Positions 8,383 to 47,690 are shown, counted from the first letter of the stretch. The stretch: 47,690 bases of DNA from Candidatus Omnitrophota bacterium (GCA_017994375.1 JAGOLA010000001.1:1-47690), one strand, 5' to 3'. Made by a program: numbers and translations. The notes: generated from the letters alone by a model not told the origin.

Positions 8383-8391
8383 TGTGTATAA
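8383..8391 (-). promoter_or_regulatory. DnaA box (TTATACACA, fits TTATNCACA) in the dnaA-dnaN spacer
   Basis: The + strand reads TGTGTATAA. It lies in a 101-bp AT-rich spacer that also contains tandem TAGTAGTAT x2 (8361-8378). Confidence 0.4.
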
Positions 8392-8457
8392 GGTGTAAAA
8401 GGCTATATTGTATCAAAACAAAAGGAAAAAATAAATAATATTTTTATAATAAAATGT

Positions 8458-9792: not shown

Positions 9793-9796
9793 TTTG

Positions 9797-9825
9797 TTAT
9801 CCACAATATCCACAATTTATCCACA
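9797..9825 (+). promoter_or_regulatory. three tandem DnaA boxes
   Basis: TTATCCACA (9797-9805), ATATCCACA (9806-9814) and TTATCCACA (9817-9825), all in the same orientation. They begin 5 nt upstream of the dnaA ATG. Candidate autoregulatory or oriC boxes. Confidence 0.8.
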
Positions 9826-9886
9826 GTATTTTGGTAAGAGCAGAATAATTATATCGTAATAATTATGCTTTGCAATATTTTTATAG

Positions 9887-9914
9887 TTGACACCGAAATA
9901 ATATATGTTAAAAT
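9887..9914 (+). promoter_or_regulatory. sigma70-like promoter candidate for rpmH-yidD-yidC
   Basis: TTGACA (9887-9892), 16-nt spacer, TAAAAT (9909-9914) preceded by TGT (extended -10-like). It sits 9 nt upstream of the rpmH ATG, implying a very short leader. Confidence 0.4.
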
Positions 9915-9922
9915 TCCCCTCT

Positions 9923-10060
9923 ATGAAGAAAAACTTCAAAACACCTACAAAATTAAAAGGTAAAAAACGTCATGGATTTCGAAAGCGCCAAAAAACTAAA
10001 AACGGAAGGAAAGTTTTATGGCGAAGGAGAAAAAAAGGGAGAAAAAAGCTCACAGTATGA
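9923..10060 (+). CDS. rpmH: 50S ribosomal protein L34
   Basis: Too short for the ORF track. Hand translation gives [45 protein letters not shown], matching the L34 pattern (..HGFR.R..T.NGR.VL.RRR.KGR..LTV). It is divergent from dnaA, as in most bacteria. Confidence 0.92.
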
Positions 10061-10263
10061 AGAGGTTGGTCATTCTTTTATTAGACATTTACCGCCTCTT
10101 TCCACTAGGGTTTCCTAAGCGCTGTATTTATGTGCCTAGTTGTTCTGAATACGCCCGGCAAGCTTTTGAGCGTTTTTCATTCCGAAAAGCTTTAAAATTA
10201 ACTTGCTTACGAGTTCTGCGTTGCCACCCTTTTTCCCAAGGCGGTTTTGATCCAGTAGAGTAA
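10057..10263 (+). CDS. yidD: membrane protein insertion efficiency factor YidD
   Basis: Motifs [14 protein letters not shown] and GGFDPV. I chose ATG 10057 (MKRLVILLL), which overlaps the rpmH stop as ATGA. The track's 10018 start would overlap rpmH by 43 nt. Confidence 0.88.
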
Positions 10264-10267
10264 TTTT

Positions 10268-11704
10268 ATGGAAAAAAGACTTTTTTTAGTTTTTTTTATT
10301 ATTTTGGCTTTTTCACTGATTTGGGGCCAAATAGTTACTAAATATCTTCCACAACAACCTGCCGGACAATTAGATAAGAATAAATACCCTTCTAGTGAAG
10401 CTATTGAAGAGTCTTCTGCAAAAGAGCCTAAAGAGACGCTCCCAGAAGACAATATAGAAAACACAAACTTACCACAGGTAAGTATAGGTAATTTTATTAT
10501 AACATATTCTCTCCAAGGAGGTTACATAAAAAATATTGCTTATAAAACCACCGATAATATCCTCCCTTTTAGCGATATCGGATTTTTAGACTGCCAAAAA
10601 GATCAATATTTTCAAGCCTCTTTTATTAAAGAAGCTTTAATTTTTCAAGGGCTCAACGGGGTAAAAAAAGAGTTTGTTTTCCAAGAAAATACTCTAGAGA
10701 TAAAACAAACCCCTCTACCAACTTGCCCAGTATTATTATTCTCTAATTATTTGCATTCCAATGGATTAGAGCAAAAATATCAAGATATATTCTATGCTCA
10801 AAATTCTAATATTCAACATTATCCTCTCCAAAAGCTTAAAGAACAGAGTTTAGCCGGGATTGATTTTATTGGCGGCCGTAATCGTTACTATTGTTTATCG
10901 TTACTGCCTGATAACTATAAAGTAGATATAATAAGAGCTAAAAATTCGGCCCAAGTTTATTTGTCCCCTTCTTCTGTAATTCGATTCTATATTGGGCCAC
11001 AAATTGAGGCCGAACTAAAAGCTCATAATCTGCAAAGTATTGTTAATTACGGGTTTTTTGATTCTATTGCTAAGGTAATGATTAAACTCCTCTATTTCCT
11101 TTATTCGCTAACTAAAAATTGGGGTTTAAGTATTATTATTTTTGCTGTTTTTATTTATTTTGTCCTCCATCCTTTTACTGCCAAAAGTACTAAAGCTATG
11201 CGGAAAATGCAAGAAATTCAACCTCAAATGGAAGAGTTAAAGAAAAAACATCAAGACTCCCCGCAAAAATTACAAAAAGAGACTATTGAACTTTATCGCC
11301 AACATAAAATTAACCCCCTGGGAGGGTGTTTGCCATTATTTCTACAATTACCGATCTTTATTTCTCTCTACCAAATCCTCTACCGTTTGGTAGAATTAAA
11401 AGGAGCTAATTTTCTATGGATTCGAGACCTTTCTTCACCCGATCACCTTTTTAAGCTTCCTTTCCCTTCACCTTTAGATTATTTTAATCTTCTTCCGATA
11501 TTGTTAATGATAGTAGGCTTAATCCAGCAAAAAGTGACTACTTCAGCTCATATGTCTGCTGACCAGAGAAGAATGGGCTTATTTTTTGGAGTATTTTTAG
11601 GGGTAATTTTTTATAATTTCCCTTCAGCTTTAGTCCTTTATTGGTTCGTCCAAAATTTACTCACCTTTTTTTATCAGTTGCGTCTCGCCAAAACTAGTCG
11701 ATGA
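10268..11704 (+). CDS. yidC: membrane protein insertase YidC (long, diderm-type periplasmic domain)
   Basis: 478 aa. N-terminal TM, an approximately 250-aa periplasmic domain, then the conserved core NPLGGCLPLFLQLPIFISLY and FPSALVLYWFVQN. Confidence 0.95.
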   Translation: MEKRLFLVFFIILAFSLIWGQIVTKYLPQQPAGQLDKNKYPSSEAIEESSAKEPKETLPEDNIENTNLPQVSIGNFIITYSLQGGYIKNIAYKTTDNILPFSDIGFLDCQKDQYFQASFIKEALIFQGLNGVKKEFVFQENTLEIKQTPLPTCPVLLFSNYLHSNGLEQKYQDIFYAQNSNIQHYPLQKLKEQSLAGIDFIGGRNRYYCLSLLPDNYKVDIIRAKNSAQVYLSPSSVIRFYIGPQIEAELKAHNLQSIVNYGFFDSIAKVMIKLLYFLYSLTKNWGLSIIIFAVFIYFVLHPFTAKSTKAMRKMQEIQPQMEELKKKHQDSPQKLQKETIELYRQHKINPLGGCLPLFLQLPIFISLYQILYRLVELKGANFLWIRDLSSPDHLFKLPFPSPLDYFNLLPILLMIVGLIQQKVTTSAHMSADQRRMGLFFGVFLGVIFYNFPSALVLYWFVQNLLTFFYQLRLAKTSR

Positions 11705-11709
11705 ATTTT

Positions 11710-11733
11710 TATCGTTTCCACGTGGAAACGATA
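11710..11733. promoter_or_regulatory. parS-like palindrome copy 1 (24-bp perfect palindrome)
   Basis: TATCGTTTCCACGTGGAAACGATA, with core GTTTCCACGTGGAAAC at 11714-11729. It starts 6 nt after the yidC stop and is followed by AATATTTTTTT, so it could also act as the yidC terminator hairpin. Confidence 0.6.
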
Positions 11734-11760
11734 AATATTTTTTTAGGTATTTTAAATAGT

Positions 11761-11776
11761 ATTTCCACGTGGAAAC
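11761..11776. promoter_or_regulatory. parS-like palindrome copy 2
   Basis: ATTTCCACGTGGAAAC. The 14-bp perfect palindrome TTTCCACGTGGAAA lies at 11762-11775. Confidence 0.55.
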
Positions 11777-11791
11777 TAAGTTATAGCTACC

Positions 11792-11807
11792 GTTTTCACG
11801 TGGAAAC
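11792..11807. promoter_or_regulatory. parS-like palindrome copy 3 (one half-site variant)
   Basis: GTTTTCACGTGGAAAC. The left half has T in place of C, and the site is followed by GCTATA as in copy 4. Confidence 0.5.
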
Positions 11808-11869
11808 GCTATAGTTGATCAGAGAACCTAATGATTTTAAAGACTTTTTAGGATACTCTGATAAATAAC

Positions 11870-11898
11870 TTGACAGAACAAAGTCTTAAATATAAAAT
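11870..11898 (+). promoter_or_regulatory. sigma70-like promoter candidate for parAB
   Basis: TTGACA (11870-11875), 17-nt spacer, TAAAAT (11893-11898). Confidence 0.5.
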
Positions 11899-11906
11899 AA
11901 TTTCTA

Positions 11907-11922
11907 GTTTCCACGTGGAAAC
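11907..11922. promoter_or_regulatory. parS-like palindrome copy 4, overlapping the predicted parA transcription start
   Basis: GTTTCCACGTGGAAAC, starting 9 nt downstream of the candidate -10 at 11893-11898 and 27 nt upstream of the parA ATG. Confidence 0.6.
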
Positions 11923-11948
11923 GCTATAAAAACAATAAAATAGCAAAA

Positions 11949-12761
11949 ATGGGTAAAATCATCGGTATTTGTAATCAAAAAGGTGGAACTGGGAAAACTA
12001 CTACTGCGATTAATTTAAGTTCTTATCTAGGGTTAGCCAGCAAAAAAACTCTTCTTATCGATATGGATCCACAAGGAAATGCTACTTCAGGGGTAGGATT
12101 TGACGCCGCTGAGAAAAACTCTATTTATGACATTATTAGCGGTAAAGCTGGTTTAACCGATAGTCTTTATCCTACTCTTTGGCCTAATTTAAGTATCATT
12201 CCTTCCAATATTTCTTTAACCGGTGGTGAAGTAGAATTAGTTAATATTGAGAACCGGGAATTAAAGTTAAGAGAAGAATTAATAAAAATAAAAAGCGATT
12301 TTGATTATATTATTATTGATGCTCCGCCATCCTTAGGCCTCTTAACCCTAAATGTTTTAGCAGCATCAGATAGTTTAATTATTCCGATTCAATGTGAATA
12401 TTATGCCTTGGAGGGAGTATCAAAATTAGTTAATACTATCGAATTAGTGGGAGAGAGACTAAATCCCTCTTTAGATATTGAGAGAGTTTTGCTTACTATG
12501 GCTGATTTTCGTACCCGCTTAACCCTACAGGTAGTTGAAGAAGTACGTAAATTTTTCCAGAAAAAAACTTTTAATATCGTTATTCCGCGTAATGTTAAGT
12601 TAGCTGAAGCGCCTAGTTTTGGCAAGCCAATATATTTTTATGACCGTACTTGTATTGGGGCTATGGCTTATTTAACTTTGACTCAAGAATTGTTAGGGCA
12701 AGAAATTATCTTGAAGCAGGATTTATTAAACGATGCTGCATTGGCAGTTAAAAAGCCATAG
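11949..12761 (+). CDS. parA: chromosome partitioning ATPase ParA/Soj
   Basis: Deviant Walker A ICNQKGGTGKTTTAINL, Walker B IIIDAPPSLG. Adjacent to parB and the parS-like sites. Confidence 0.93.
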   Translation: MGKIIGICNQKGGTGKTTTAINLSSYLGLASKKTLLIDMDPQGNATSGVGFDAAEKNSIYDIISGKAGLTDSLYPTLWPNLSIIPSNISLTGGEVELVNIENRELKLREELIKIKSDFDYIIIDAPPSLGLLTLNVLAASDSLIIPIQCEYYALEGVSKLVNTIELVGERLNPSLDIERVLLTMADFRTRLTLQVVEEVRKFFQKKTFNIVIPRNVKLAEAPSFGKPIYFYDRTCIGAMAYLTLTQELLGQEIILKQDLLNDAALAVKKP

Positions 12762-12799
12762 AAATTTAAAAGATAAAATTTTCATTTAGGAGGTTAATA

Positions 12800-13633
12800 A
12801 TGGAAAGAAAAGTTTTAGGCAAAGGTTTAGAAGCACTTATACCTAAAAAGACCACAGCAGTTTTGCCTCGGGAGTTTACTTACTTGGCTTTAGATAAAAT
12901 TCGTCCGGCTAAAAACCAACCGCGTCAGGAAATAAACTCTAAAGAATTGGAGGAGTTAGCCCAGTCGATAAAAGAAAAAGGTTTTATCCAGCCAATAGTA
13001 GTCAGACCTAGCGGTAGCAGCCCTGATAATTACGAAGTCGTAGCTGGCGAAAGAAGATACCAAGCTTCTAAGTCCTTGGGGCTCAAAGAGATACCAACAA
13101 TCATTAAAGATTTAAACGATAAAGACGCTTTTGTGCTAGCTATCATTGAGAATCTGCAGCGCAAAGATTTAAATCCCATAGAAGAAGCCCAAGCTTTTAA
13201 GAGGTTAATTGATGAATTAAAGTTTACCTTAGAAGATATAGCCCAATTTGTCGGTAAAGATAAAAGCACAGTAGTTAATACCTTGCGTTTATTAAAGTTA
13301 CCGGAAAAAATCAGAAGGGCTTTGCAGGAAGGTTTAATTAGCCGTACCCAAGCCAGAACAATATTGAGCGCCGAAAGATTAGAAGCCCAGGAAAAACTTT
13401 TTTACCAGATTTTGCAAGAAGGCCTTTCGGTGAGGGAAATAGAGAAGAAAGCCAGGGCAGTATCACGCAAGAAAAAAACTATTGATCCTTTTGTACTAGA
13501 AATCGAAGAAAGGCTACAGAAAATCTTAGGTACGAAGGCAAAAATTTATCATAAGCGTAGTAACCGCGGTAAAATAATAATAGAGTATTACACTTTAGAC
13601 GATTTAGAAAGAATAATAAAGAAATTTAGATAA
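12800..13633 (+). CDS. parB: chromosome partitioning protein ParB/Spo0J
   Basis: ParB N-domain box GERRYQASKSLG, ENLQR(K)DLNPIEEA, and HTH segment. A strong GGAGG RBS lies 6 nt upstream of the ATG. Confidence 0.93.
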   Translation: MERKVLGKGLEALIPKKTTAVLPREFTYLALDKIRPAKNQPRQEINSKELEELAQSIKEKGFIQPIVVRPSGSSPDNYEVVAGERRYQASKSLGLKEIPTIIKDLNDKDAFVLAIIENLQRKDLNPIEEAQAFKRLIDELKFTLEDIAQFVGKDKSTVVNTLRLLKLPEKIRRALQEGLISRTQARTILSAERLEAQEKLFYQILQEGLSVREIEKKARAVSRKKKTIDPFVLEIEERLQKILGTKAKIYHKRSNRGKIIIEYYTLDDLERIIKKFR

Positions 13634-16611: not shown

Positions 16612-16683
16612 GGCGGCGTACCCAAGTGGAAAGGGAGAGGTCTGCAAAACCTTTATGCAGCGGTTCAAATCCGCTCGCCGCCT
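16612..16683 (+). tRNA. tRNA-Cys (anticodon GCA)
   Basis: GGCGGCG-UA-CCC..GGG-A-GAGGU-CUGCAAA-ACCUU-UAUGC-AGCGG-UUCAAAU-CCGCU-CGCCGCC-U. It closely resembles Bacillus-type tRNA-Cys. Confidence 0.9.
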
Positions 16684-16744
16684 TAATAAAAGTATTAAGT
16701 TTAGAGTTAGTAGTTCGTAGATGTAAACTAATATGCCGGGGTGT

Positions 16745-16829
16745 TGGAATGGCAGACAAAGCAGACTTAAAATCTGCTGTTTCGTAAGAAGCGTGCGGGT
16801 TCAAGTCCCGCCCCCGGCATTTAATGAGA
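16745..16829 (+). tRNA. tRNA-Leu (anticodon UAA), class II with long variable arm
   Basis: Acceptor GCCGGGG/CCCCGGC, anticodon arm GCAGA-CUUAAAA-UCUGC, long variable arm, T arm GCGGG-UUCAAGU-CCCGC. Confidence 0.9.
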
Positions 16830-17003
16830 CTTGGGCTTTTGCAAGTTTAACCACAGCAAAAGCCCTTAGTCGAATTAATCCTGAGCGAAGCGAAGGATCT
16901 TAATTAATAAAGTAATTTTATTTTTAATCTTAAGGTGCTTCGGTGACGTCACCTCAGCACCGATGAAAAATAAAGAATAACCCTATATAATTACTTTTTC
17001 ATC

Positions 17004-17077
17004 GGGCGATTAGCTCAGTTGGCTAGAGTACTTCCTTGACATGGAAGGGGTCACAGGTTCAAGTCCTGTATCGCCCA
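17004..17077 (+). tRNA. tRNA-Val (anticodon GAC)
   Basis: GGGCGAU-UA-GCUC..GAGU-A-CUUCC-UUGACAU-GGAAG-GGGUC-ACAGG-UUCAAGU-CCUGU-AUCGCCC-A. Confidence 0.9.
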
Positions 17078-17085
17078 TGGTCTTA
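17060..17085 (+). repeat. direct repeat copy 1 (3' end of tRNA-Val plus 8 nt of flank)
   Basis: CAAGTCCTGTATCGCCCATGGTCTTA, identical to 17196-17221. Confidence 0.9.
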
Positions 17086-17195
17086 TGTAGTTACAAGGCG
17101 ATGTGACCTTATAAAAGTAAGAGGTTTTCTGAAAATATTTCTTGTATCAAATAATTACACCTTCGGTGTTCTTCGACTACGTCGAAGATTTGATG

Positions 17196-17221
17196 CAAGT
17201 CCTGTATCGCCCATGGTCTTA
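17196..17221 (+). repeat. direct repeat copy 2 (orphan tRNA-Val 3' fragment, att-like)
   Basis: CAAGTCCTGTATCGCCCATGGTCTTA, identical to 17060-17085 and offset by 136 bp. No complete tRNA can be folded around it. Confidence 0.9.
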
Positions 17222-17259
17222 GATGATAAAGTTTAGCGGATACCGAGTTGTTTTTATAT

Positions 17260-17287
17260 TTGACTTTCGTTAAAATTAATTTACAAT
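17260..17287 (+). promoter_or_regulatory. sigma70-like promoter candidate for tRNA-Asp
   Basis: TTGACT (17260-17265), 16-nt spacer, TACAAT (17282-17287), about 48 nt upstream of the tRNA-Asp 5' end. Confidence 0.35.
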
Positions 17288-17335
17288 AACTTTTCATTTT
17301 CTATACGCTGGACGCTATTTGCTATACGCTATAAC

Positions 17336-17411
17336 GGGGCCGTCGATTAGTCCGGTTTAAGTCCCTTGACTGTCGATCAAGTGACCGTGGGTTCAAATCC
17401 CATCGGCCCCG
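17336..17411 (+). tRNA. tRNA-Asp (anticodon GUC)
   Basis: GGGGCCG-UC-GAUU..AGUC-C-CUUGA-CUGUCGA-UCAAG-UGACC-GUGGG-UUCAAAU-CCCAU-CGGCCCC-G. Confidence 0.88.
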
Positions 17412-17559
17412 TAGTCTTCTTTATGCTGTAGAGGCATAACTTCCAAAACAAAGCCCATCGTCATACCAAAGCCTAATACCTGGTTTTGTAATAATAAAAC
17501 TCTACCGCTAAATAAGGTAATGGTATAATAATAAAAGCTTTACTTTAGCACCAATATTT

Positions 17560-38041: not shown

Positions 38042-38626
38042 TTGATTAAAAGATTTTTTGATATTATTTTTTCGTTAATAGTATTATATTTTAGTCTACC
38101 AATTTTTGTTATTTTTTTCTTTTTGATAAAATTGGATTCTGCGGGGGCTGTTTTCTTTAAACAGAAAAGAATCGGTAAAAACGGAAAAGCCTTTTTAATT
38201 TTTAAATTTCGCACCATGCGGGCAGAGAAAGGCCCTCTTTTAACTACTTCTAAGGACAATAGGATTACTTCTTTAGGGCGGTTTTTACGGAGGATTAATT
38301 TTGACGAACTTCCGCAATTTTGGAATATAGTTAAAGGGCAAATGAGCGTAGTTGGGCCTCGTCCGGAAATCCCGGAGATAGTAGAAAATTTTACCGAAGA
38401 GCAAAAAAAAATACTTAACTTTAAACCCGGCTTTACCTCTTATGCTACTCTTAAATGTTTAAACGAAGAAAAAATATTAGATGATAAAAATTTGATGCAG
38501 CAGTATTATAATGAACAATTACCGTTAAAAATAAAATATGATTTAGAATATTTTTATCATAACAGCAATTTTTTAAATGATTTATTAATAATTTTAAAAA
38601 CAGTAGGTAAGACTTTTTGGTCTTAA
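38042..38626 (+). CDS. small monotopic phosphoglycosyl transferase (bacterial sugar transferase, PglC/WbaP-C-terminal type)
   Basis: KRFFDIIFSLIVL re-entrant helix, FFKQKRIGKNGKAFLIFKFRTM, and DELPQFWNIVKGQMSVVGPRPE. Confidence 0.88.
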   Translation: MIKRFFDIIFSLIVLYFSLPIFVIFFFLIKLDSAGAVFFKQKRIGKNGKAFLIFKFRTMRAEKGPLLTTSKDNRITSLGRFLRRINFDELPQFWNIVKGQMSVVGPRPEIPEIVENFTEEQKKILNFKPGFTSYATLKCLNEEKILDDKNLMQQYYNEQLPLKIKYDLEYFYHNSNFLNDLLIILKTVGKTFWS

Positions 38627-38629
38627 GAT

Positions 38630-40486
38630 ATGGATAAAAGGTTAAAAAAATTAAAAGCTTCTTTAAAAGGGTTATTGTCCGTTAAATATTTTATAGACCT
38701 TGTCTTAATAATTACTAGTTATTGGTTATCTTATTTAGTAAGATTTGAAGGAATAGTTCCGGTCGAAGAAGTTCTTATTTTTAAAGAATCTCTTTTAACC
38801 TTTGTTTTAGGGTTTTTAATTTGTGATTTATTATTCGGGCTTACCAGAAGCATTTGGAGATATACTAGCTTGCAGGACATTGAGAATATCGGGTTTTTCG
38901 TCTTGAGCGGAAGCGGCTTAAGCGTGCTTATCGGTTTGATATTTTTTCCTAAAGAGATAGCCAATGTTCCTAGATCGATATACATAATAAATTTTTTCTT
39001 TCTTTTCTTTGGTATAAGCGGAACCAGGCTTTCTTACCGTATCTTATTTGACCAATGGCGAAAGATTAAGAAAGGCAAAGAGAATGTTTTAATAGTAGGT
39101 GACCAAAACATCGGAGTTTCGTTGCAGCAATCTATTTTGCAAGACCGTACTCATCAGTTTAATATCGTTGGTTTTATTACTTTGGTAAAAAGCCGTATTG
39201 GCAATACCGTAAATGCTACTCCGATAATCGGCTTACCCGAAGATATTCCTAGCATAGCTAAGAACGAAGATATAAAGTGTATTTTTATAGCCTTAGATTC
39301 TGCTTCTAATGAAGAGATGAAGAAAGTAATAAAAATATCTCAAAACACCGGAGTGTTAACCAGGATCAGCCCCAGCATAGTAGATTTAATTAACAGTAAA
39401 TTTTCGCTTAATGATTTACGAGAAGTAAAATTTGAAGACTATCTGGATAGACAGCCAGTTAAATTTGATTTGGATAAATTGAAAGGAGAGTTTTTTGGGA
39501 AAAATATTTTAGTAACCGGTGCCGGCGGTTCTATCGGAGCTAGTTTGTGCGAAGAGTTATTGGTTTTTGAGCCAGCGAGGCTAATAGCGATAGACTTATC
39601 AGAAAATAACCTTTTTGGCGTTTCGCAAAGGTTAACGGAGATAAAAAAGAAAATGCCCGCTAACTCTACTGAGATAATATATAAAATTTTAGATATTAAA
39701 GACCAAGTTTTACTGGGAAAATTTTTAGAAGCTAACTCTGTAGATTATCTGATACATACTGCAGCTTTAAAGCATGTTCCTTTCTGCGAGGAGAACCCGC
39801 AGATGGCGATACAAACTAATCTTTACGGTACTTTAAATCTTCTATTATTAGCTGATAGAGTAAAAATCAAGAAATTTATATATATTTCGACGGATAAAGC
39901 TGTTAATCCAATATCGATAATGGGTGTTACCAAGAGAATTGGAGAATTATTAGTAAAAGATTTTAGCCATAACAAGTCTTCTCAAACAAAATTTATGGCA
40001 GTTAGATTCGGAAATGTCATTGGCAGTTCCGGCAATGTAGTAGAAATATTTACCCATCAACTACAAAAAGGTTTACCGCTTACTATTACCGATTCTCGGA
40101 TGGAACGTTACTTTATGAGTTTAGAAGAAGCTACTAAGCTAATAATGGAAGCTATAGTTATAGGAGGCGAGGGTGAGACTTTTGTTTTGGATATGGGGCG
40201 AGCAGTAAAGATAAGAGACTTAGCCGACGATATTGCTTTATTTTATGGCCGGCAAATCAAAGAAAAAGATATTATCTATATCGGTAAAAGGAAAGCCGAA
40301 AAAATAACCGAGGATTTATTTGGGCTAAACGAAGAAAAAATGCCAACGAGCTTAGGAAGAATTTTTGAAGTCAGAGAAAAAGTACCAACAGAAGGTTTAA
40401 TCGATAAAGTAAAAAAATTATGCCAAGACCTTAATCAGCTTAATGAACGAGAAATAAGAGAAGAGCTTTTTGCTATAATAGAATAA
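38630..40486 (+). CDS. membrane-anchored nucleotide-sugar 4,6-dehydratase (CapD/PglF/WbpM family)
   Basis: N-terminal 4 TM segments, Rossmann motif VTGAGGSIGASLCEEL, STDKAVNP, and FGNVIGSSGNV. Confidence 0.88.
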   Translation: MDKRLKKLKASLKGLLSVKYFIDLVLIITSYWLSYLVRFEGIVPVEEVLIFKESLLTFVLGFLICDLLFGLTRSIWRYTSLQDIENIGFFVLSGSGLSVLIGLIFFPKEIANVPRSIYIINFFFLFFGISGTRLSYRILFDQWRKIKKGKENVLIVGDQNIGVSLQQSILQDRTHQFNIVGFITLVKSRIGNTVNATPIIGLPEDIPSIAKNEDIKCIFIALDSASNEEMKKVIKISQNTGVLTRISPSIVDLINSKFSLNDLREVKFEDYLDRQPVKFDLDKLKGEFFGKNILVTGAGGSIGASLCEELLVFEPARLIAIDLSENNLFGVSQRLTEIKKKMPANSTEIIYKILDIKDQVLLGKFLEANSVDYLIHTAALKHVPFCEENPQMAIQTNLYGTLNLLLLADRVKIKKFIYISTDKAVNPISIMGVTKRIGELLVKDFSHNKSSQTKFMAVRFGNVIGSSGNVVEIFTHQLQKGLPLTITDSRMERYFMSLEEATKLIMEAIVIGGEGETFVLDMGRAVKIRDLADDIALFYGRQIKEKDIIYIGKRKAEKITEDLFGLNEEKMPTSLGRIFEVREKVPTEGLIDKVKKLCQDLNQLNEREIREELFAIIE

Positions 40487-40507: not shown

Positions 40508-41617
40508 ATGCGCAAACGTAGTCAGAAGATTTTTATTATCGGTGCCGGTCCTATTGGTTGTTATCTCGCCCAACTGTTGAAAAAAAAATCTATACAGCCG
40601 GTTCTTATCGAAGAGCATAAAAAATTAGGCCGGCCAGTTCATTGCGCCGGTTTAATCGGAAAAAAAAGTTTTGAAGAGTCTCAAATACACTTATCGCCAA
40701 AAAGTATAATTAATACTGTCAACGGAGCCAAAATACATTTGAATAATGAAGTAATAACAGTTACCAGGGAAAAAGTCGCTTATGTTATCGATAGAGAAAA
40801 GTTTGACAAGAGCCTGGGTGAAGGGCTAGATGTGCGTTTTAGCACTAAATTCTTAGGCCTAGAAGAAAAAAATCACCACTATATTATTGAGACCGATAAA
40901 GGAGATTTTGAAGCTGATATTGTCATTGGTGCTGACGGAGCTAAATCATTAGTAAGAGATTTTGTAACCGGTAAAAATATCGAGTATTTAACCGGAGTCC
41001 AATTTCGCATGAAATACAAAACCGAATATAAAGACAGAGTGGAAGTGTACATAAAGAGGCCTTATTTTTACTGGATTATTCCCGAACAAGAAGATATCGT
41101 TCGCATCGGAGTTATTTCTAAAACCCCCTATAAAGATTTATTAAAATTTATTAAAGAAAAAAGGATAAAAGGCAAAATTTTAGAGAAATTTGCCGGAATA
41201 GTACCACTCGATCACTTTTCTTCTTTATCTAAAGGCCGGATATTTCTAGTAGGCGATAGTGCTTGCCAGATTAAACCCTTGACTTACGGCGGAGTATATA
41301 TGGGTATGAGAGGAGCGGAAATTTTAGCTAAATGCATAGTAAAAGATAATTTTTCGAATTATTCTTTGTTTTGGAAGAGAAAATTCGGCCGAGAAGTAGC
41401 TATAACTTCTAAGATACGGGAGACTTTGCATAAGCTTAACGATAAAGAAATTTCCAGGATATTTTCTTTCGTTAAAAGCAAAAATAAATTGATAGAAGAA
41501 AAGGGAGATTTTGAGAATCATTCTTTTCTTCTTTGGGAGTTATTACGGCAGCCCGATGTTACCAGAGAGTTATTTCAGATATTATTAAGCGTGACTAGCG
41601 CCCAATTTAGGAAATAA
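40508..41617 (+). CDS. geranylgeranyl reductase-family FAD-dependent oxidoreductase
   Basis: FAD-binding IIGAGPIGCYLA, a conserved Cys context PVHCAGLIG, ADGAKS, and LVGDSACQIKPLTYGGV (GD-type FAD motif). Family-level call only. Confidence 0.6.
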   Translation: MRKRSQKIFIIGAGPIGCYLAQLLKKKSIQPVLIEEHKKLGRPVHCAGLIGKKSFEESQIHLSPKSIINTVNGAKIHLNNEVITVTREKVAYVIDREKFDKSLGEGLDVRFSTKFLGLEEKNHHYIIETDKGDFEADIVIGADGAKSLVRDFVTGKNIEYLTGVQFRMKYKTEYKDRVEVYIKRPYFYWIIPEQEDIVRIGVISKTPYKDLLKFIKEKRIKGKILEKFAGIVPLDHFSSLSKGRIFLVGDSACQIKPLTYGGVYMGMRGAEILAKCIVKDNFSNYSLFWKRKFGREVAITSKIRETLHKLNDKEISRIFSFVKSKNKLIEEKGDFENHSFLLWELLRQPDVTRELFQILLSVTSAQFRK

Positions 41618-41619
41618 AT

Positions 41620-42918
41620 ATGCCTTTGACTTTAAAAAATAGGATAATTGGAATTCTTACCGTATTTACCGTAATAAGCATAGTTGTATTTATTTCTATC
41701 CAGATTTCGCACGAGCTAGAAATGCTAAATAAATACAATACTTACAAAGCGAAAATAGTTTCGACGGTAATAAAAGAGAAATTAGAAAATATTTTAGGTC
41801 TGGAGATTTTAGAAGAGCAAAAAGTAAATTTCTTAGAAAAAACCGTAGAGAATTTAAAAAAATCACGCTCCATAGAAAAAATCTATATCTTTGATGCCCA
41901 AGGCAATATTATTGCTGCCAGTGAAGACTGGCTTAAACAGAGTCAAGCCGAATATAGCGACATTGTAGCTATAGATAAGGCTACAAAGAATAAGTTAGAA
42001 GAGGAAATAATTATTGATAAGAGCCTTAAACAATTTTCACTGTACATTCCCGTAGAAACTGCTGGTCAAATAAAAGTTGTTGCTAAAGTGTTCTTTTCTT
42101 TAGGAGATATCTGGGATGCCTTAAAGCAGATTTATAGAGAAGCAATAATAATCGGGATTTTAATAATAATTATAAATATTTTTATCGGTTTATTTCTTTC
42201 GCGTTTAATTATCGGCCCAATAAAGGTTTTTAACAAAGCTGCCGGAGCGATAGCAGCAGGAAGTCTTGACTTAAGAGTTAAAATTCATACCAATGACGAA
42301 TTGGAGGAGTTAGCCAAAGTTTTCAATTATATGACCGAAGAGTTAATGAAGATGAAAGCTAAAGCCGAAAATGCTAATCCTTTGACTAAATTGCCGGGTA
42401 ATTTAGTAATAATGGAGGAAGTAGAAAAACGTATTAAGGAAGATAAAAAATTTACTGTTATCTACGCCGATTTGGACAATTTTAAAGCCTTTAACGATAA
42501 ATACGGCATCCATAAGGGAGATGAAGCCATAAAATTAACCGGAGATGTTTTTAAAGAGGCAATTAATAATAAAGGAGATAACTCTGATTTTGTCGGCCAC
42601 GAAGGAGGAGATGATTTTATTATTCTTACTACCCCTCAACGAGCGGATGAAGTTGTTGACTATATAATTCATAATTTTGACGAAAAGATACGCCTTTTAT
42701 ATGATAAAGAAGATTTAGAAAGAGGTTATATCGTAGCCCATTCCCGAGAAGGAGAAGTAAAACAGTTTCCGATAATGACTATATCTTTGGCCGGCGTCAC
42801 TAACCAGTATAGACCAATTTCTACCTATAGCGAAGTAACTAATATAGTTGCCGAAGTAAAAAAGAAAGCTAAAGGTAAAAATAAGAGCTGTTTCGTGTTG
42901 GATAAAAGAGAAAAATGA
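41620..42918 (+). CDS. sensor protein: TM, extracytoplasmic domain, TM, HAMP, then GGDEF-type cyclase domain with a GGDDF motif
   Basis: Two TM segments flank an approximately 140-aa domain. HAMP region (IGPIKVFNKAAGAIAAGSLDLRV...DELEELAKVFNYM). Cyclase domain DLDNFKAFNDKYGIHKGDEAI and HEGGDDFIIL (GGDDF encoded at 42604-42618). No RxxD I-site; DNSD is in its place. Confidence 0.8.
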   Translation: MPLTLKNRIIGILTVFTVISIVVFISIQISHELEMLNKYNTYKAKIVSTVIKEKLENILGLEILEEQKVNFLEKTVENLKKSRSIEKIYIFDAQGNIIAASEDWLKQSQAEYSDIVAIDKATKNKLEEEIIIDKSLKQFSLYIPVETAGQIKVVAKVFFSLGDIWDALKQIYREAIIIGILIIIINIFIGLFLSRLIIGPIKVFNKAAGAIAAGSLDLRVKIHTNDELEELAKVFNYMTEELMKMKAKAENANPLTKLPGNLVIMEEVEKRIKEDKKFTVIYADLDNFKAFNDKYGIHKGDEAIKLTGDVFKEAINNKGDNSDFVGHEGGDDFIILTTPQRADEVVDYIIHNFDEKIRLLYDKEDLERGYIVAHSREGEVKQFPIMTISLAGVTNQYRPISTYSEVTNIVAEVKKKAKGKNKSCFVLDKREK

Positions 42919-43169: not shown

Positions 43170-43358
43170 TACCTTAGCCTCCAATTTAAAGATACCATAA
43201 AAGAAATGCTTTGTCAATCTAGTGCAACTATTTGTTATTCAGTAGGTTAGTTTAAGCTAGACCTCTAAAATTTATAAATTAATGCCAAATATACTATTCT
43301 GGATAGAATTAGCTGATTTTAAAACGTTTTCAGTATTAAAGAATAAATTTGTTATTTG

Positions 43359-43388
43359 TTGACAAAAACAGTTAAGAGTTATTATAAT
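43359..43388 (+). promoter_or_regulatory. near-consensus sigma70 promoter for the TPR-PilZ-barrel-lipoprotein operon
   Basis: TTGACA (43359-43364), 18-nt spacer, TATAAT (43383-43388), 25 nt upstream of ATG 43414. Confidence 0.5.
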
Positions 43389-43413
43389 ATAAGATAATTT
43401 AACTTTTTTAATA

Positions 43414-45186
43414 ATGGTTAAGAAAATTGCCTCTAAAGCTAGCCTAACCCTGATGCTATCGTTTTTATTAGCGGTAGCCTTTCTCTTTATTTATAACCGT
43501 TATCTTTTGGATAAGTCTTTATCCAACTTAAGAATATCTTTGAAAGTAATAGAAAAAGCCGGTAATTTCGAAGAAGTAAAGAAAATAAAAGATATCCTTA
43601 AAGACACTTTTATCATGGAAATAAGTGCCGGCAATTTCGATTTAGCTAGGGCCGAGAAAGAAGATGTTTCCGGGGGCCCTAAAGCAAGAGGGCTGACAGC
43701 CCAGGATGAAAACAAAATATTTACCGATAAATTATCCATAGCTACAAAACTAGATTATATCGAAGATATAGTTGAAGGTATTTCCGAGCAGAAACAGATC
43801 GAAGACATAAAATATTTTATCGAAGATATTATTGCTCAAAAGATTAAAGAAAAACCCCTTTTTGTTGCTAATTTAGAAAAATTTATTGTCGAATTTTTTC
43901 CCCAACCCCGCCAAGAAAAATTTGATAATTTAAAGAACCAAGTAGAATCATTAAAACAACAGCTTGCTAATTATTCCGGCCGGCAGCTTCAGGAAAAAAT
44001 ACTAGAAATTGCCAGGATGTATTTAAGGATGGGAGAATGGGACGAGAGCCAGACATATTTAAATAAAACTTTGCTATTAGGCTCACAGAATTATTCTGGG
44101 CTTAAAGCCCAATTCTATTTAGCTGTTTTATATAAGCTTAAAGGGAACTATCAGGATTCTTTATTGGTTTTTCAAAAAATAAAAGATATCTTGCCTTTAG
44201 AGTGGAAGATGTTTTCTTATTATCAAGAAGCCGATTCTTTAGCAGCTTTAGGCGATAAGGTAAAGGCAGTAAATGTATTAGAGCAAGCCTTTGATAAAAA
44301 TCCCGATTCTGAAATTTCTCAAGTAGCTAAATTCCGTGCCGCTTATACCTATTTATATGATTTAAACGACCCCGAAAAAGCCCGCCAGGCTTTTAAAGAA
44401 TTAAAAGATAAAATTACAGTAGAAGAAGATAAAGGAAAAACTACCGATCAAAAAGAATTAGAAAAATTAAAAATTTCTTTTTACGCTGCTGAAAAGATTA
44501 TAAAAGATATCTGCAACAAATATAGAGAGGAAGGCTACCAACTTTTAAAACAGGGATATACTAAATTTGATAGCATAAAATATTTGGAAGCTTTAGACAA
44601 GTTCAATTTAGCTTTGAAAGATGATAATCAAGATCCGTTAGCCATTTCTGGGAAAAGCTTAGCGCTTTATTTTATTGGTAAACGCGAAGAGGCAATCCAA
44701 GAGTCAAGAAGAGCTAAGGAAATTTCTCCTAATGATGCTATAGTTCTAGTAAACTTAGGTTTTATATATTATAATGTGGGGATGTTGGAAGAGGCAGTGG
44801 GAGAATACCGCGCCGCCTTAAAAATAAAACCAAATTCAGCCCTTATCAATTACAATTTAGGAACCCTTTATATTTTAAGCGGAGATTTAAATCGCGCCGG
44901 GTTTCATCTTGAGAGGTCTATAGAAATAAACCCTGATTTTGCCTATCCTTTAAATAACCTAGGGTATCTTTCTTGGCTTCAAGGAGGTTATGGCGAAGCC
45001 AAAAGGTGGTTGGAAAAAGCCATTGCTTTTAAAGATGATTACGTAGACGGACGATATAACTTAGCTATTGTATTATTTATTTTAGGAAAATATGATGCCG
45101 CCCAGGAAGAATTCTTAAAAGTAGAAGAGCTATCTCCCGGTTATAAGAAAACCGGCTGGTATTTAAGCGAAATTAAAAAAAAGTAG
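43414..45186 (+). CDS. N-terminally anchored tetratricopeptide-repeat (TPR) protein
   Basis: 590 aa. One N-terminal TM or signal-anchor (LTLMLSFLLAVAFLFIY). There are multiple TPR units, clearest in the C-terminal third (e.g. AIVLVNLGFIYYNVGMLEEAVGEYRAALKIKPN and ALINYNLGTLYILSGDLNRAGFHLERSIEINPD). Confidence 0.8.
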   Translation: MVKKIASKASLTLMLSFLLAVAFLFIYNRYLLDKSLSNLRISLKVIEKAGNFEEVKKIKDILKDTFIMEISAGNFDLARAEKEDVSGGPKARGLTAQDENKIFTDKLSIATKLDYIEDIVEGISEQKQIEDIKYFIEDIIAQKIKEKPLFVANLEKFIVEFFPQPRQEKFDNLKNQVESLKQQLANYSGRQLQEKILEIARMYLRMGEWDESQTYLNKTLLLGSQNYSGLKAQFYLAVLYKLKGNYQDSLLVFQKIKDILPLEWKMFSYYQEADSLAALGDKVKAVNVLEQAFDKNPDSEISQVAKFRAAYTYLYDLNDPEKARQAFKELKDKITVEEDKGKTTDQKELEKLKISFYAAEKIIKDICNKYREEGYQLLKQGYTKFDSIKYLEALDKFNLALKDDNQDPLAISGKSLALYFIGKREEAIQESRRAKEISPNDAIVLVNLGFIYYNVGMLEEAVGEYRAALKIKPNSALINYNLGTLYILSGDLNRAGFHLERSIEINPDFAYPLNNLGYLSWLQGGYGEAKRWLEKAIAFKDDYVDGRYNLAIVLFILGKYDAAQEEFLKVEELSPGYKKTGWYLSEIKKK

Positions 45187-45204
45187 CGGTATTAAACTAA
45201 AACC

Positions 45205-45579
45205 ATGTTAGAAAGATTAAAAAAATTTTTAGGTTGGAATATACCAGAGAAAAGAGTTTTTATCCGGATAAAGTCCCACCATCTAGTAAAGTATAAAATA
45301 ATTGATGATAGCCAAAAAGTCCTTTCTTTTGCCAGAAATATCAGTGCCGGCGGAATTTTATTCTATTCCGAAAAAAAATTACCTTTAAACAGTACAATAG
45401 AGATAAAGATAAATATTCCTCCTAAACCGACACCGCTTAACGTAGTCGGAAAAATAGTAAGAGTACACCCTTTAAAAAAAATCGGTGGTTATGAAATAGG
45501 TTTAGAGTTCGTCCATATTGACGAAGAGGACCGTAATTTAATAGAAAAATTAGTTTTAAGTTCTACTTTAAATTTATAG
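45205..45579 (+). CDS. PilZ-domain protein (predicted c-di-GMP receptor)
   Basis: 124 aa. The RxxxR motif (RVFIR) and the (D/N)xSxxG motif (NISAGG) are both intact and correctly spaced. Confidence 0.82.
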   Translation: MLERLKKFLGWNIPEKRVFIRIKSHHLVKYKIIDDSQKVLSFARNISAGGILFYSEKKLPLNSTIEIKINIPPKPTPLNVVGKIVRVHPLKKIGGYEIGLEFVHIDEEDRNLIEKLVLSSTLNL

Positions 45580-46898
45580 TGGTTAATAAAGGGGTGAATC
45601 TTAATTTAGGGTTGCTGGTTTTTTTTATTATTTTTAGTGCAATATTTTTAACTACCGGGATATTAGCAGGAGCCGAAACAGTTTCTGATGGTACAAAGAT
45701 AACCGATGAAGCAGCACCATTAGAAACAGAGGAATCCATAGAACAACCGGAAGAAACAAAGCCGGCTAAACAGGTAGGCAAAAACCTTTCTGATAAAGCC
45801 GAGAACTATTTACGCCGTATTATCAAGGATTTGATTTTTACTCTTACTATGGAAGAGGAATTTAATGATAATGTTTACGAGAAAAGTACTGATGAAAAAG
45901 CCGCTTTGATTACCAGGGCTAACCTAGGAGTAAATTATGCTCCTGACTTTGATTGGGCAAAAGGGCACGGTAAGATCAGCTTCGAAACTAAAGGTGGGCC
46001 AGTAAGCTATAGTAGTCTTGAGACCGGAGATGAAGAAGAGGATTTTTCATCCAAAGTACTTATTGATTATATGAGAAGAAAATGGTATCTAGGATTGGGT
46101 TATGGGATTACCTCTACCCGGAGTTTAGGTTCAGAAATTTCTACTAGTGCCAGTGATGATACGGCTGAATATTGGAGAGATTCTTACACCATAAAGTTTG
46201 GCACTAATTGGGAAAAAATACCTTGGGAGATTAAGTATACCGAAGAAGATACTTCTTACGACGAAAAGTATCAATCTTCCGATATTTTATCCAAAGATAT
46301 TTCTCTAACTCAGTATTTCAGAGCCTCCCCCAAGACCTATTTTCTTATTAATTATAAACACGAGATAGATGAATACCCCAACAGAGGTTCTATTTCCACT
46401 GGTGGAGAAGCCGATGTATTATCAGCTGGAATAAAGGGAAAAATTTCGTCTAAGGTTACTGGGATAGCAACTTTTGGCCGGCAAATATATGATCCTGACA
46501 GCAGCGAACAAGACAAAGAAACAGATACAGTAGGCATAGAGCTAGATTACGATACTACTCAGCGTCTCAAAACTAACTTAACAGCTACAAAAGGTATAGT
46601 TGCTACCGAATATGCCAGCGAAGATTATGTCACTACCGATAAGATAGGTTTAAGTTTTAATTATTTACCGCCGTTTAGTCCAAAATTAAAATTAGGATTG
46701 AAATTATCTTTTGCTAAAGATGAGTATGAATCAGGGAGAAAAGAGGATACCTATTCTCTTGGGGCCGGCTTTGAACACAGTTTAAGAAAATGGCTTACTC
46801 TTATCGGAGCATATAAATTCACTGAAAGAAAGTCAGATTTAAATACCCAGGAATACCAAAATAATATTATTAGTTTAAAGTTAGTAGCAAAGTTTTAA
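45579..46898 (+). CDS. outer-membrane beta-barrel protein, unknown family
   Basis: Signal peptide ending ILAGA|ETV. An acidic linker is followed by about 350 aa of alternating-hydrophobicity strands with aromatic girdles. The C-terminal LKLVAKF ends in Phe (OMP sorting signature). The GTG start shares 1 nt with the PilZ stop. Confidence 0.7.
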   Translation: MVNKGVNLNLGLLVFFIIFSAIFLTTGILAGAETVSDGTKITDEAAPLETEESIEQPEETKPAKQVGKNLSDKAENYLRRIIKDLIFTLTMEEEFNDNVYEKSTDEKAALITRANLGVNYAPDFDWAKGHGKISFETKGGPVSYSSLETGDEEEDFSSKVLIDYMRRKWYLGLGYGITSTRSLGSEISTSASDDTAEYWRDSYTIKFGTNWEKIPWEIKYTEEDTSYDEKYQSSDILSKDISLTQYFRASPKTYFLINYKHEIDEYPNRGSISTGGEADVLSAGIKGKISSKVTGIATFGRQIYDPDSSEQDKETDTVGIELDYDTTQRLKTNLTATKGIVATEYASEDYVTTDKIGLSFNYLPPFSPKLKLGLKLSFAKDEYESGRKEDTYSLGAGFEHSLRKWLTLIGAYKFTERKSDLNTQEYQNNIISLKLVAKF

Positions 46899-46905
46899 CA
46901 CTATT

Positions 46906-47690
46906 ATGAAGGTACTTTTTTTAATCTTATTTTTTCTTATAGGCTGTTCTTCCCAGGATACAACTTCTACTTTACATGCTAGCTCGCAAGAAACCACAAA
47001 GGCTGTTAGTAAAATCAAAAGAACTAAGAACGTTCTTACTCAAGATAGCCTTAATAAGGAAGCTGAAAAAATATACCAAGAAGCACTTTCTCTTTATAAA
47101 AATAAAGAATATAAATCTGCTCTTGCTAAGTTTAAAACAGTTGAAAAGATTATCCCTGGGTACTTTAAGACAACACACTATATCAATTCTGCTACAAAAA
47201 TAATTACTCGAGAAACTAAGACCGCACGAAAGAAAGCTTTACAAGCCGAAGAAGAGCGCCTGCGTTTAGAGCAAGAGCGTCAATTAGCCGAACAAAAAGC
47301 TCAAGCTGAACGCCAGCGTCAAGAGCAGTTAGAAAAAGAGCGTACTCAAAAAGAAGAAGTCAAAGCTCTTAGCACTAAAGCCATAGCGCTCTACAATCAG
47401 AAAGATTACTCCCAAGCTCAGGAAGTTTTTAATAACATCTTAGCCTTAGATCCCAAGCACTCCCTAGCTAAGGTTTACTTAGAGACGCGTATTCCTCAAC
47501 AACTACAGCAATTAAAAGCCCAAGAAGAACGTGCTAAAGTTGAACAGGAGCGCCTAGCCCAAAAAGCCGAAGAAGAGCGCCTGCGTTTAGAGCAAGAGCG
47601 TCAATTAGCCGAACAAAAAGCTCAAGCTGAACGCCAGCGTCAAGAGCAGTTAGAAAAAGAGCGTACTCAAAAAGAAGAAGTCAAAGCTCT
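46906..47690 (+). CDS. repetitive lipoprotein with TPR-like units and Glu/Arg/Gln-rich coiled-coil segments, 3' end beyond the window
   Basis: Absent from the ORF track because it stays open to the window end. Hand translation gives MKVLFLILFFLIGC|SSQ (lipobox LIGC). TPR-like segments (EAEKIYQEALSLYKNKEYKSALAKF; KAIALYNQKDYSQAQEVFNNILALDP) alternate with EEERLRLEQERQLAEQKAQAERQRQEQLEKERTQKEE. Confidence 0.75.
   Translation, partial: MKVLFLILFFLIGCSSQDTTSTLHASSQETTKAVSKIKRTKNVLTQDSLNKEAEKIYQEALSLYKNKEYKSALAKFKTVEKIIPGYFKTTHYINSATKIITRETKTARKKALQAEEERLRLEQERQLAEQKAQAERQRQEQLEKERTQKEEVKALSTKAIALYNQKDYSQAQEVFNNILALDPKHSLAKVYLETRIPQQLQQLKAQEERAKVEQERLAQKAEEERLRLEQERQLAEQKAQAERQRQEQLEKERTQKEEVKA
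47245..47369 (+). repeat. 125-bp perfect direct repeat, copy 1 (inside the lipoprotein gene)
   Basis: GCCGAAGAAGAGCGCCTGCGTTTAGAGCAAGAGCGTCAATTAGCC...GTCAAAGCTCT is identical to 47566-47690. The offset is 321 bp (107 codons, in frame). Confidence 0.9.
47566..47690 (+). repeat. 125-bp perfect direct repeat, copy 2 (runs into the window end)
   Basis: Identical to 47245-47369 base for base, up to the last base of the window. Confidence 0.9.

Follow-up and report, generated by a model that had tools for sequence, protein, structure and literature searches.

A TPR, PilZ and β-barrel operon of Candidatus Omnitrophota as a candidate c-di-GMP-linked module for Wzx/Wzy-type polysaccharide export

What kind of machine is encoded by the four genes that close a 47,690-nucleotide stretch of DNA from Candidatus Omnitrophota bacterium (GCA_017994375.1 JAGOLA010000001.1:1-47690), and is that machine under the control of cyclic di-GMP (c-di-GMP)? 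The whole stretch is called the window below. The genes lie at its end, from position 43,359 to 47,690, and encode a tetratricopeptide repeat (TPR) protein, a stand-alone PilZ protein, a putative outer-membrane β-barrel, and a lipoprotein built of repeats (Table 1). An earlier interpretation made from the DNA alone (the sequence-only reading) had described them as a separately promoted envelope module linked to polysaccharide export. It had also likened them to the export halves of synthase-dependent exopolysaccharide systems (Alg, Pel, Bcs and Pga), and had recognized the arrangement as no named system. The first of these descriptions is supported by a conserved promoter and by related loci, while the other two are not. 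In orthologous loci, the same genes lead into those of a Wzx/Wzy pathway with a composite translocon, in which an OPX protein (for outer-membrane polysaccharide export) is paired with a β-barrel, and the likeness to the synthase-dependent systems is confined to the kinds of parts. We consider it likely that the operon belongs to a Wzx/Wzy-type OPX/β-barrel export module. The reading as a whole, in which the operon forms the promoter-proximal part of a Wzx/Wzy-dependent polymerisation and export cassette with such a translocon, is one that we favour with somewhat less assurance.

Orthologous loci and the export pathway

Related DNA was gathered by exact-protein look-ups and collection scans, and two clades were defined. 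Clade A comprises the window and the loci L001/L002, L003, and L007, and its gene order is a membrane sensor with HAMP and GGDEF-type domains (HAMP-GGDDF, after its motif), a small divergent open reading frame (ORF), and the genes for the TPR protein, PilZ, the barrel, and the repeat lipoprotein. Clade B comprises L004/L009 and L005/L008/L016, which NCBI names Candidatus Omnitrophota. Its genes stand in the same order, and their products share 54% (GGDDF sensor), 39% (TPR protein, full length), 43% (PilZ), and 28% (barrel) identity with those of the window. The sequence-only reading had suggested following the TPR, PilZ and barrel genes across related genomes, and their linkage proved to be conserved: PilZ stands directly before the barrel in five lineages, and tiny gaps always separate it from the TPR gene on one side and the barrel gene on the other. 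After the barrel, the clade-B loci continue with genes for an OPX protein, a polysaccharide co-polymerase (PCP) of 610 aa with Wzz, GNVR and tyrosine kinase domains (Wzc-like), a Wzy-like membrane protein of 432 aa with a Wzy_C domain, and a second TPR protein, followed in L016 by an HD-GYP gene. Because OPX, PCP/tyrosine kinase, and Wzy-like genes come right after the clade-B barrel, they point to the Wzx/Wzy route rather than to the export half of a synthase-dependent system. Wherever the DNA downstream of a related barrel is available, the barrel adjoins an OPX gene or shares a locus with one. Barrels beside an OPX protein without Wza_C were seen in L004, L005, L008, L009, L016, and L015, the last of which has a distant BBP2_2 barrel beside a short OPX protein of 212 aa and a PCP. 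The gene order is directly supported, as is its conserved linkage, in the orthologous loci, to genes for OPX, PCP and Wzy; the same holds for the domains, the motifs and the barrel fold described below. OPX and PCP genes downstream of the window are what we infer. The known carriers of the cassette are so far limited to a few uncultured bacteria with an Omnitrophota annotation.

Alg44-AlgK-AlgE, PelB/C/D/E, BcsA-BcsC, and PgaA also combine a TPR scaffold and a porin of 16-18 strands with a c-di-GMP receptor encoded in the operon, and it could be argued that the operon is the export half of such a system, split into separate polypeptides and with its synthase encoded elsewhere. The similar part list (TPR protein, 18-stranded barrel, PilZ, lipoprotein), the presence of AlgE among the best structural matches of the barrel, and the fact that c-di-GMP control after translation is typical of these systems (PMC12802240) would all agree with this. 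However, neither the window nor the related loci revealed any processive, membrane-embedded synthase, and in particular no GT2 synthase with multiple transmembrane (TM) segments, which extends to the wider neighbourhood the sequence-only reading's remark that the operon holds no recognisable synthase. The GT2 and GT4 proteins of the window are all small, with TM segments that are absent or only C-terminal. In addition, PilZ is here a free protein and not part of a synthase or co-polymerase, separate polypeptides carry the TPR repeats and the porin, and models of PgaA and BcsC match at a weak TPR level only. The genes right after the orthologous barrels are hallmarks of the Wzx/Wzy pathway, and the families of the barrel and of the TPR protein indicate loci of the PEP-CTERM type. 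We regard a synthase-dependent system as quite unlikely.

The closest precedent for a Wzx/Wzy-type module with an OPX/β-barrel translocon comes from Myxococcus, in which this composite translocon was described in 2022 and inferred to be widespread (PMC9601211, PMC9603273). EpsY/EpsX, WzaB/WzpB, and ExoA/ExoB of Myxococcus xanthus pair a class-3 (D4-less) OPX protein with an 18-stranded barrel in Wzx/Wzy pathways (PMC9601211, PMC9603273, PMC12819527). The orthologous loci resemble them in that the gene for an 18-stranded barrel stands beside one for an OPX protein without Wza_C, followed by PCP/tyrosine kinase and Wzy-like genes; the likeness of the barrel itself to WzpX, WzpS, and WzpB is one of strand number and gene context. 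The best solved relative of the clade-B OPX protein is Myxococcus WzaB (9N9A; 3.6e-25), in an alignment that reaches the C terminus. WzaB binds the porin WzpB via its C-terminal Phe-Phe (PMC12819527), and the clade-B OPX proteins also have a hydrophobic end, ...PESLF or ...PETLF. In contrast to WzaB, which is a lipoprotein of 204 aa, they are 455 aa long, contain three SLBB domains, and have a type I signal peptide and no lipobox. As the solved class-3 OPX protein WzaB requires N-terminal lipidation, the clade-B OPX protein may be tethered in some other way, perhaps via the TPR protein. The systems also differ in that the cassette here incorporates genes for a TPR protein, PilZ on its own, and a GGDDF sensor, none of them described for Myxococcus, and in that clade A has the repeat lipoprotein after the barrel, with no OPX gene seen. 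A Wzx/Wzy-type pathway with a composite translocon is already known; the built-in c-di-GMP module and the clade-A repeat lipoprotein are unusual.

A second set of relatives is provided by the XrtA/PEP-CTERM loci, whose families include PrsT (TIGR02917), the outer-membrane protein TIGR03016, TIGR03027, ChnLen (TIGR03007), TyrKin (TIGR03018), and EpsL (TIGR03014). The clade-B OPX protein passes the pepcterm_export model TIGR03027 (199 bits, cut-off 180), and the best family matches of the TPR protein and the barrel also belong to this set. The same kinds of parts are found in L011-L013, where distant BBP2_2 barrels lie in XrtA/PEP-CTERM loci together with PrsT, EpsB_2, pepcterm_export, ChnLen, TyrKin, an ATPase, a deacetylase, and FemAB. 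The barrel, which is BBP2_2 and similar to TIGR03016 and EpsL, and the TPR protein, whose best match is PrsT, thus place the operon in the lineage of XrtA/PEP-CTERM-type exopolysaccharide loci. There are differences, as the proteins of the window fall far under the equivalog cut-offs and the gene order is another. We did not find an exosortase (EpsH/XrtA), a PEP-CTERM ATPase, or FemAB among the window ORFs of at least 100 aa, nor among the scanned ORFs and Pfam hits of L005, L008, and L016. Unlike the window, PEP-CTERM loci use regulation of the PrsK/PrsR type and have no PilZ, and no PilZ was found in the distant barrel loci L011-L013 and L015.

Table 1. Positions of the operon, its neighbours in the window, and selected genes of related loci. 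Positions are those of the window unless a locus is named.
Feature	Position	Strand	Characteristics
Glycan locus, 21 kb	19330-40486		HepA/MsbA/PglK-like ABC transporter, GT9, ~eight GT4, three GT2
Small phosphoglycosyl transferase of 194 aa (Bac_transf) and membrane dehydratase of 618 aa (CapD/PglF-like)	38042..40486	+	Pfam
Geranylgeranyl reductase family protein	40508-41617		between the CapD-like and GGDDF genes; TIGR02032 174.8 bits, cut-off 158.8
Membrane sensor, 432 aa, GGDEF-type	41620..42918	+	two TM segments; HAMP 4.6e-12, GGDEF 4.2e-14
Small secreted protein, 79 aa	42930..43169	-	ORF with strong GGAGG ribosome-binding site
Promoter block, conserved	43312..43413	+	TTGACA 43359-43364, 18-nt spacer, TATAAT 43383-43388
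TPR protein, 590 aa	43414..45186	+	many matches to Pfam TPR families
Stand-alone PilZ, 124 aa	45205..45579	+	Pfam PilZ 5.5e-15
Barrel, 439 aa (434 aa if the start is GTG 45594)	45579..46898	+	BBP2_2 (PF10082)
Repeat lipoprotein, N-terminal 261 aa seen	46906..47690 (window end)	+	LIGC lipobox; TPR_2 4e-10
Four-TM protein, 150 aa, clade B	L004 2921-3373; L008 7145-7597; L016 6352-6804		just upstream of the TPR gene
OPX protein, 455 aa, clade B	L008 11109-12476 (also L004, L005, L016)		two Poly_export stretches, three SLBB, no Wza_C
HD-GYP protein, 669 aa, 7TM (HisKA_7TM)	L016 16359-18368		HD_5 1.9e-31

Promoter, β-barrel and TPR protein

The promoter that the sequence-only reading had called near-consensus is a perfect one, with 12/12 consensus positions matched, and TTGACA-18-TATAAT occurs only once in the window (0.02 occurrences expected from shuffles). 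It lies 26 nt from the first ATG, with a short leader of ~20 nt. The ~100-nt block around it is almost the same, apart from a few substitutions, in L003, a relative whose proteins are 81-91% identical to those of the window, whereas the intergenic DNA outside the block has diverged. The ORF calls also bear out the four tightly packed genes, which are co-directional and separated by gaps of no more than 18 nt. An Rfam scan of the operon leader found no riboswitch and no other RNA element. Within the conserved block, an imperfect inverted repeat of 22 nt (43365-43409; 73% complementary) covers the -10 element and the start of the leader. It may serve as an operator or form a hairpin in the leader, or it may have arisen by chance in AT-rich DNA.

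The third gene encodes a protein with a signal peptide and a C-terminus (...VAKF) whose terminal Phe forms a β-signal, and it had been proposed to be an outer-membrane barrel of 16-18 strands. Our AlphaFold (AF2) model, built on an alignment of six homologues, agrees with this in having 18 strands between residues 85 and 438, after a helix (64-83) that is predicted to be periplasmic (pLDDT 71.8, pTM 0.63). The start codon had been said to share a base with the PilZ stop, which holds for the ORF as called mechanically from GTG 45579 and not for an 81%-identical orthologue that begins five codons later, at the equivalent of GTG 45594. Profile searches, which the sequence-only reading had named as a check, placed the protein in Pfam BBP2_2 above the gathering score of 23.7 (36.2 bits, E = 4.2e-9, residues 283-439), and the clade-B orthologue covers nearly the full model at 3.3e-13. 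The only NCBIfam matches, to TIGR03016 (42.4 bits, cut-off 90.85) and EpsL TIGR03014 (33.3 bits, cut-off 275), lie below their cut-offs. When aligned by hhalign with three barrels that pass TIGR03016, the protein matched at 95% probability (E = 2.3e-8) in the N-terminal part, and it shares the N-terminal strand motif EFNDN[VI]Y...ITR..PG with genuine TIGR03016 barrels. The subfamily to which the window's barrel belongs is very rare, with only six clusters among 5.8 billion protein clusters. Foldseek against the PDB returned β-barrels in general, with the top TM-scores, of about 0.5, for AlgE (3rbh, 0.51/0.55) and the OccK/OpdK porins, which are 18-stranded. Since AlgE and OccK porins both match, the fold alone leaves the function of the barrel undecided, and it is family and context that decide. 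Our preferred reading is of a porin that is predicted to pair with an OPX protein.

Because OccK/OprD-type porins match the barrel model as well as AlgE does, we also considered that the barrel and the TPR protein might serve another process, be it as a diffusion porin, as accessories of a type IV pilus or secretin (with a PilW/Tgl-like TPR protein, PilZ, and an Amuc_1098-like lipoprotein), or in outer-membrane biogenesis. Such roles would fit with sub-threshold matches to PilW, Tgl, and BamD for the TPR protein and to Amuc_1098 (E = 0.012) for the lipoprotein, but these matches are weak and all far under curated cut-offs, and the association of related barrels with OPX genes speaks for export. 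We judge this group of explanations highly improbable. The pilus or secretin reading was rejected, as we did not find any pilus or secretin genes in the window or in any related locus.

The TPR protein begins with a single membrane anchor (residues ~9-29), continues with a helical stretch that matches no family (30-190), and carries two TPR blocks, in keeping with its earlier description as an inner-membrane-anchored protein. Full-length orthologues are 39-86% identical to it. Its best NCBIfam match is PrsT (TIGR02917; 1.5e-27), in the C-terminal TPR part only. It is not PrsT by the curated test, as it scores 95.9 bits against a cut-off of 312 and has a hydrophobic anchor of ~20 residues without a lipobox cysteine where PrsT has a lipobox; it is also 300 aa shorter. 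Three lysines precede the hydrophobic segment and the flank after it carries no net charge in clade B, which favours an N-in, C-out topology with the TPR domain in the periplasm. Judging from these features, the TPR domain is most likely periplasmic, and the protein looks like a PrsT-like periplasmic scaffold. A TPR superhelix had been anticipated, and the single-sequence model is indeed all-helical, with a pLDDT of ~80 at residues 420-580, but it is poor at residues 1-170, and Foldseek matched it to generic TPR superhelices only (e.g., OGT and APC/C).

PilZ and the c-di-GMP genes

If the operon belongs to a Wzx/Wzy-type export module, the question that follows is what a PilZ protein is doing within it. 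Both of the c-di-GMP-binding motifs claimed for this protein, RxxxR (R17/R21) and NxSxxG (N45/S47/G50), are intact, at the spacing of ~20-30 residues between RxxxR and [D/N]xSxxG that served as the PilZ criterion. They are invariant in four orthologues from both clades, at an overall identity of only 40-44%. The protein has no hydrophobic segment and should therefore be cytoplasmic, and its motifs predict a cytoplasmic c-di-GMP receptor. Since the TPR domain is most likely periplasmic, an interface between PilZ and the TPR domain is unlikely. A search of PDB sequences with PilZ gave insignificant matches only.

A candidate source of the c-di-GMP signal is the HAMP-GGDDF protein. Its gene stands ahead of the block wherever the available sequence goes that far upstream, which it does not in the short contigs L007 and L009. 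The sequence-only reading had noted a HAMP-GGDEF sensor here; the HAMP and GGDEF-type domains are confirmed, but the motif is GGDDF and there is no RxxD I-site. Translation and alignment to solved diguanylate cyclases gave HEGGDDF instead of RxGG[D/E]EF and DNSD instead of RxxD, so that the sensor departs from the [G/A/S]G[D/E]E[F/Y] motif that is canonical for active diguanylate cyclases. The sensor has kept the Asn and Asp that specify guanine (FKAFND...GD) as well as the metal-binding Asp, and GGDDF is retained in the 54%-identical clade-B orthologue, whose gene stands in the same position. The Pfam GGDEF match ends at model position 101/161, cut short by ~30 extra aa that follow the motif. 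GGDDF is non-canonical and usually inactive, yet one GGDDF enzyme has been shown to be active and to make cyclic dinucleotides (PMC8835794). As the specificity residue is the canonical Asp, the product would be c-di-GMP and not cGAMP. A Hypr-GGDEF (cGAMP synthase) identity for the sensor was rejected, the specificity position being Asp (GD) rather than Ser.

In L016, the sole locus that extends far enough, the export genes are bracketed by the cyclase-like gene and a gene for an HD-GYP phosphodiesterase. The HD and HHENYDGSGYP (HHExxDGxGYP) motifs of the latter are intact, and a small cupin gene comes next. With the invariant motifs and the fixed position of PilZ, the GGDDF sensor upstream, and the HD-GYP gene of L016, the c-di-GMP link proposed by the sequence-only reading is plausible. 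We are more tentative about what the link does: gating of the export machine by PilZ after translation seems to us possible, at slightly less than even likelihood.

The same module could also work without c-di-GMP gating, with PilZ and the GGDDF protein being degenerate or regulating something else, for example motility, pili, or transcription via another partner, and with the linkage reflecting co-expression only. This would sit well with the usual inactivity of GGDDF domains (PMC8835794), with the loss from the sensor of both the Arg before the motif and the RxxD I-site, with the fact that no PilZ target can be named, and with the distant barrel loci that do without PilZ. It is harder to reconcile with c-di-GMP-binding residues that have stayed invariant while the rest of PilZ diverged to 40-44% identity, with the constant place of PilZ between the TPR and barrel genes at tiny gaps, or with the cyclase-like and HD-GYP genes around the L016 cassette, and one GGDDF domain does have measurable cyclase activity (PMC8835794). 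We consider the absence of gating unlikely. For gating by PilZ, a plausible model is EpsW, a single-domain response regulator that activates the initiating transferase EpsZ in M. xanthus (PMC12802240). EpsW, like PilZ, is a small, cytoplasmic, single-domain signalling protein encoded with a composite-translocon Wzx/Wzy pathway. Its input is the phosphorylation of a receiver domain, and by analogy the input here would be the binding of c-di-GMP to PilZ.

Two small proteins accompany these genes. The gene for the 79-aa secreted protein is divergent and lies between the GGDDF gene and the operon, a position that is kept in both clades. Its homologues are called genes in L002 and L003, while those in L004 and L016 are 30-35% identical, and an SSPxE motif just past the signal peptide is common to it and the clade-B homologues; the protein may belong to the system. 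The 150-aa protein with four TM segments has no family match and no counterpart in clade A.

Repeat lipoprotein, glycan locus and proposed mechanism

The lipoprotein at the end of the operon had been described as having a LIGC lipobox, TPR-like units, and charged coiled coils, and its translation and TPR_2 match confirm this. Its modules consist of one TPR-like hairpin and a charged coiled coil, with a period of 107 aa, and the gene contains an exact (100%) direct repeat of 127 nt (47243-47369 and 47564-47690) with a period of 321 nt. The window stops inside the second copy, so the lipoprotein is incomplete, and other assemblies of the clade-A locus also stop within or just before this gene. 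The full gene is probably much longer, having been collapsed or broken in every assembly. The lipoprotein is specific to clade A, with orthologues after the barrel in L003 and L007. A word-indexed protein collection gave no homologue when searched with the fragment, whereas an exhaustive search recovered 519 relatives, which are arrays of the same module of 400-2,500 aa with no other Pfam domain. The possibility that the lipoprotein is an N-terminal extension of an OPX protein or a secretin is not supported, as the 519 relatives are repeats without an informative domain.

Upstream of the sensor lies a large glycan locus. Beyond the genes in Table 1, it contains methyltransferases, two deacetylases, including a NodB-type one, a Wzy_C-like protein of 437 aa, and PglE/PglC/PglF-like genes, and we did not find any Wzx flippase, OPX, or PCP gene between 19330 and 40486. 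The locus resembles a pathway for an ABC-flipped, lipid-linked oligosaccharide or lipooligosaccharide more than a classic exopolysaccharide locus. The phosphoglycosyl transferase and the CapD-like dehydratase are initiating enzymes, and their families adjoin the cassette in both clades (L005, L008, and L016 in clade B). The geranylgeranyl reductase family gene is conserved in L003, and its product could saturate the polyprenyl carrier lipid of the glycan pathway. Farther upstream, positions 1-13633 make up a chromosomal origin region with gyrA, gyrB, dnaN, and dnaA on the minus strand and yidC, parA, and parB on the plus strand; the GC skew changes sign at ~8-12 kb, and the likely oriC is ~35 kb away from the export cassette. 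A cluster of four tRNA genes (Cys-GCA, Leu-TAA, Val-GAC, and Asp-GTC) occupies 16612-17412 and a tRNA-Glu gene lies at 2037-2113. No non-tRNA Rfam family reached its gathering score in the whole window.

Several observations weigh against the reading of the operon as the start of a Wzx/Wzy-dependent cassette whose export is gated by PilZ. A tblastn search of the window gave no OPX or PCP homologue anywhere. The place that the OPX gene holds in clade B is taken in clade A by the repeat lipoprotein, whose 519 relatives contain no OPX domain, and the DNA beyond it is unseen, since every assembly breaks in the repeat. The glycan locus, with its ABC transporter and GT9 and without a Wzx, may make a glycan other than the exported one. 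For the barrel, the model was built on six sequences, and Foldseek did not separate AlgE-like exporters from ordinary 18-stranded porins. A profile of the six barrels, searched against PDB sequences up to an E value of 10, matched no PgaA, BcsC, or AlgE chain. The barrel and the TPR protein are also far under the curated cut-offs of TIGR03016, EpsL, and PrsT, and the hhalign match of the barrel spans just 90 columns. As for gating, the bulk of the TPR protein is predicted to be periplasmic, so that genes adjacent to that of PilZ need not encode its binding partners; the replacement of the Arg before the sensor motif (HEGGDDF) adds to the concern that the GGDDF domain may be inactive.

If the cassette works in the way that we propose, the 439-aa, 18-stranded porin would let the polymer exit through the outer membrane, in partnership with an OPX protein of the periplasm in which the Wza-type outer-membrane helix is missing. 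The TPR protein of 590 aa, with its inner-membrane anchor and a periplasmic superhelix, would serve as a scaffold similar to PrsT, placed between the machinery of the inner membrane and the translocon, and the repeat lipoprotein would be a clade-specific periplasmic scaffold, probably tethered to the outer membrane. On the signalling side, c-di-GMP would be made by the HAMP-GGDDF sensor and, in relatives, removed by the 7TM HD-GYP phosphodiesterase. PilZ with bound c-di-GMP would then switch the cytoplasmic face of the machine on or off by a post-translational mechanism, for which the co-polymerase's tyrosine-kinase domain and the phosphoglycosyl transferase that initiates the pathway are candidate targets. 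In its most specific form, the proposal is of a local c-di-GMP circuit (HAMP-GGDDF cyclase, free PilZ, and 7TM HD-GYP protein) that is hard-wired into a Wzx/Wzy machine with a class-3 OPX/β-barrel translocon, and of an OPX protein that in clade A is supplemented or replaced by a very long, periplasm-spanning repeat lipoprotein; we put this forward as a speculation that is rather doubtful.

The post-translational control of Wzx/Wzy pathways is poorly understood, and c-di-GMP gating has so far been a hallmark of synthase-dependent pathways (PMC12802240). Should PilZ act elsewhere, the locus would be merely a diverged member of a known export system. If PilZ does gate the machine, a Wzx/Wzy pathway would for the first time be seen to be gated by c-di-GMP directly and after translation, and the cassette offers a small set of proteins with which such gating can be probed. 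The reach of the composite OPX/β-barrel translocon would also be extended to the Omnitrophota, an uncultured phylum whose cells are mostly ultra-small and may depend on hosts (PMC10066038), and for whose attachment surface polymers could matter.

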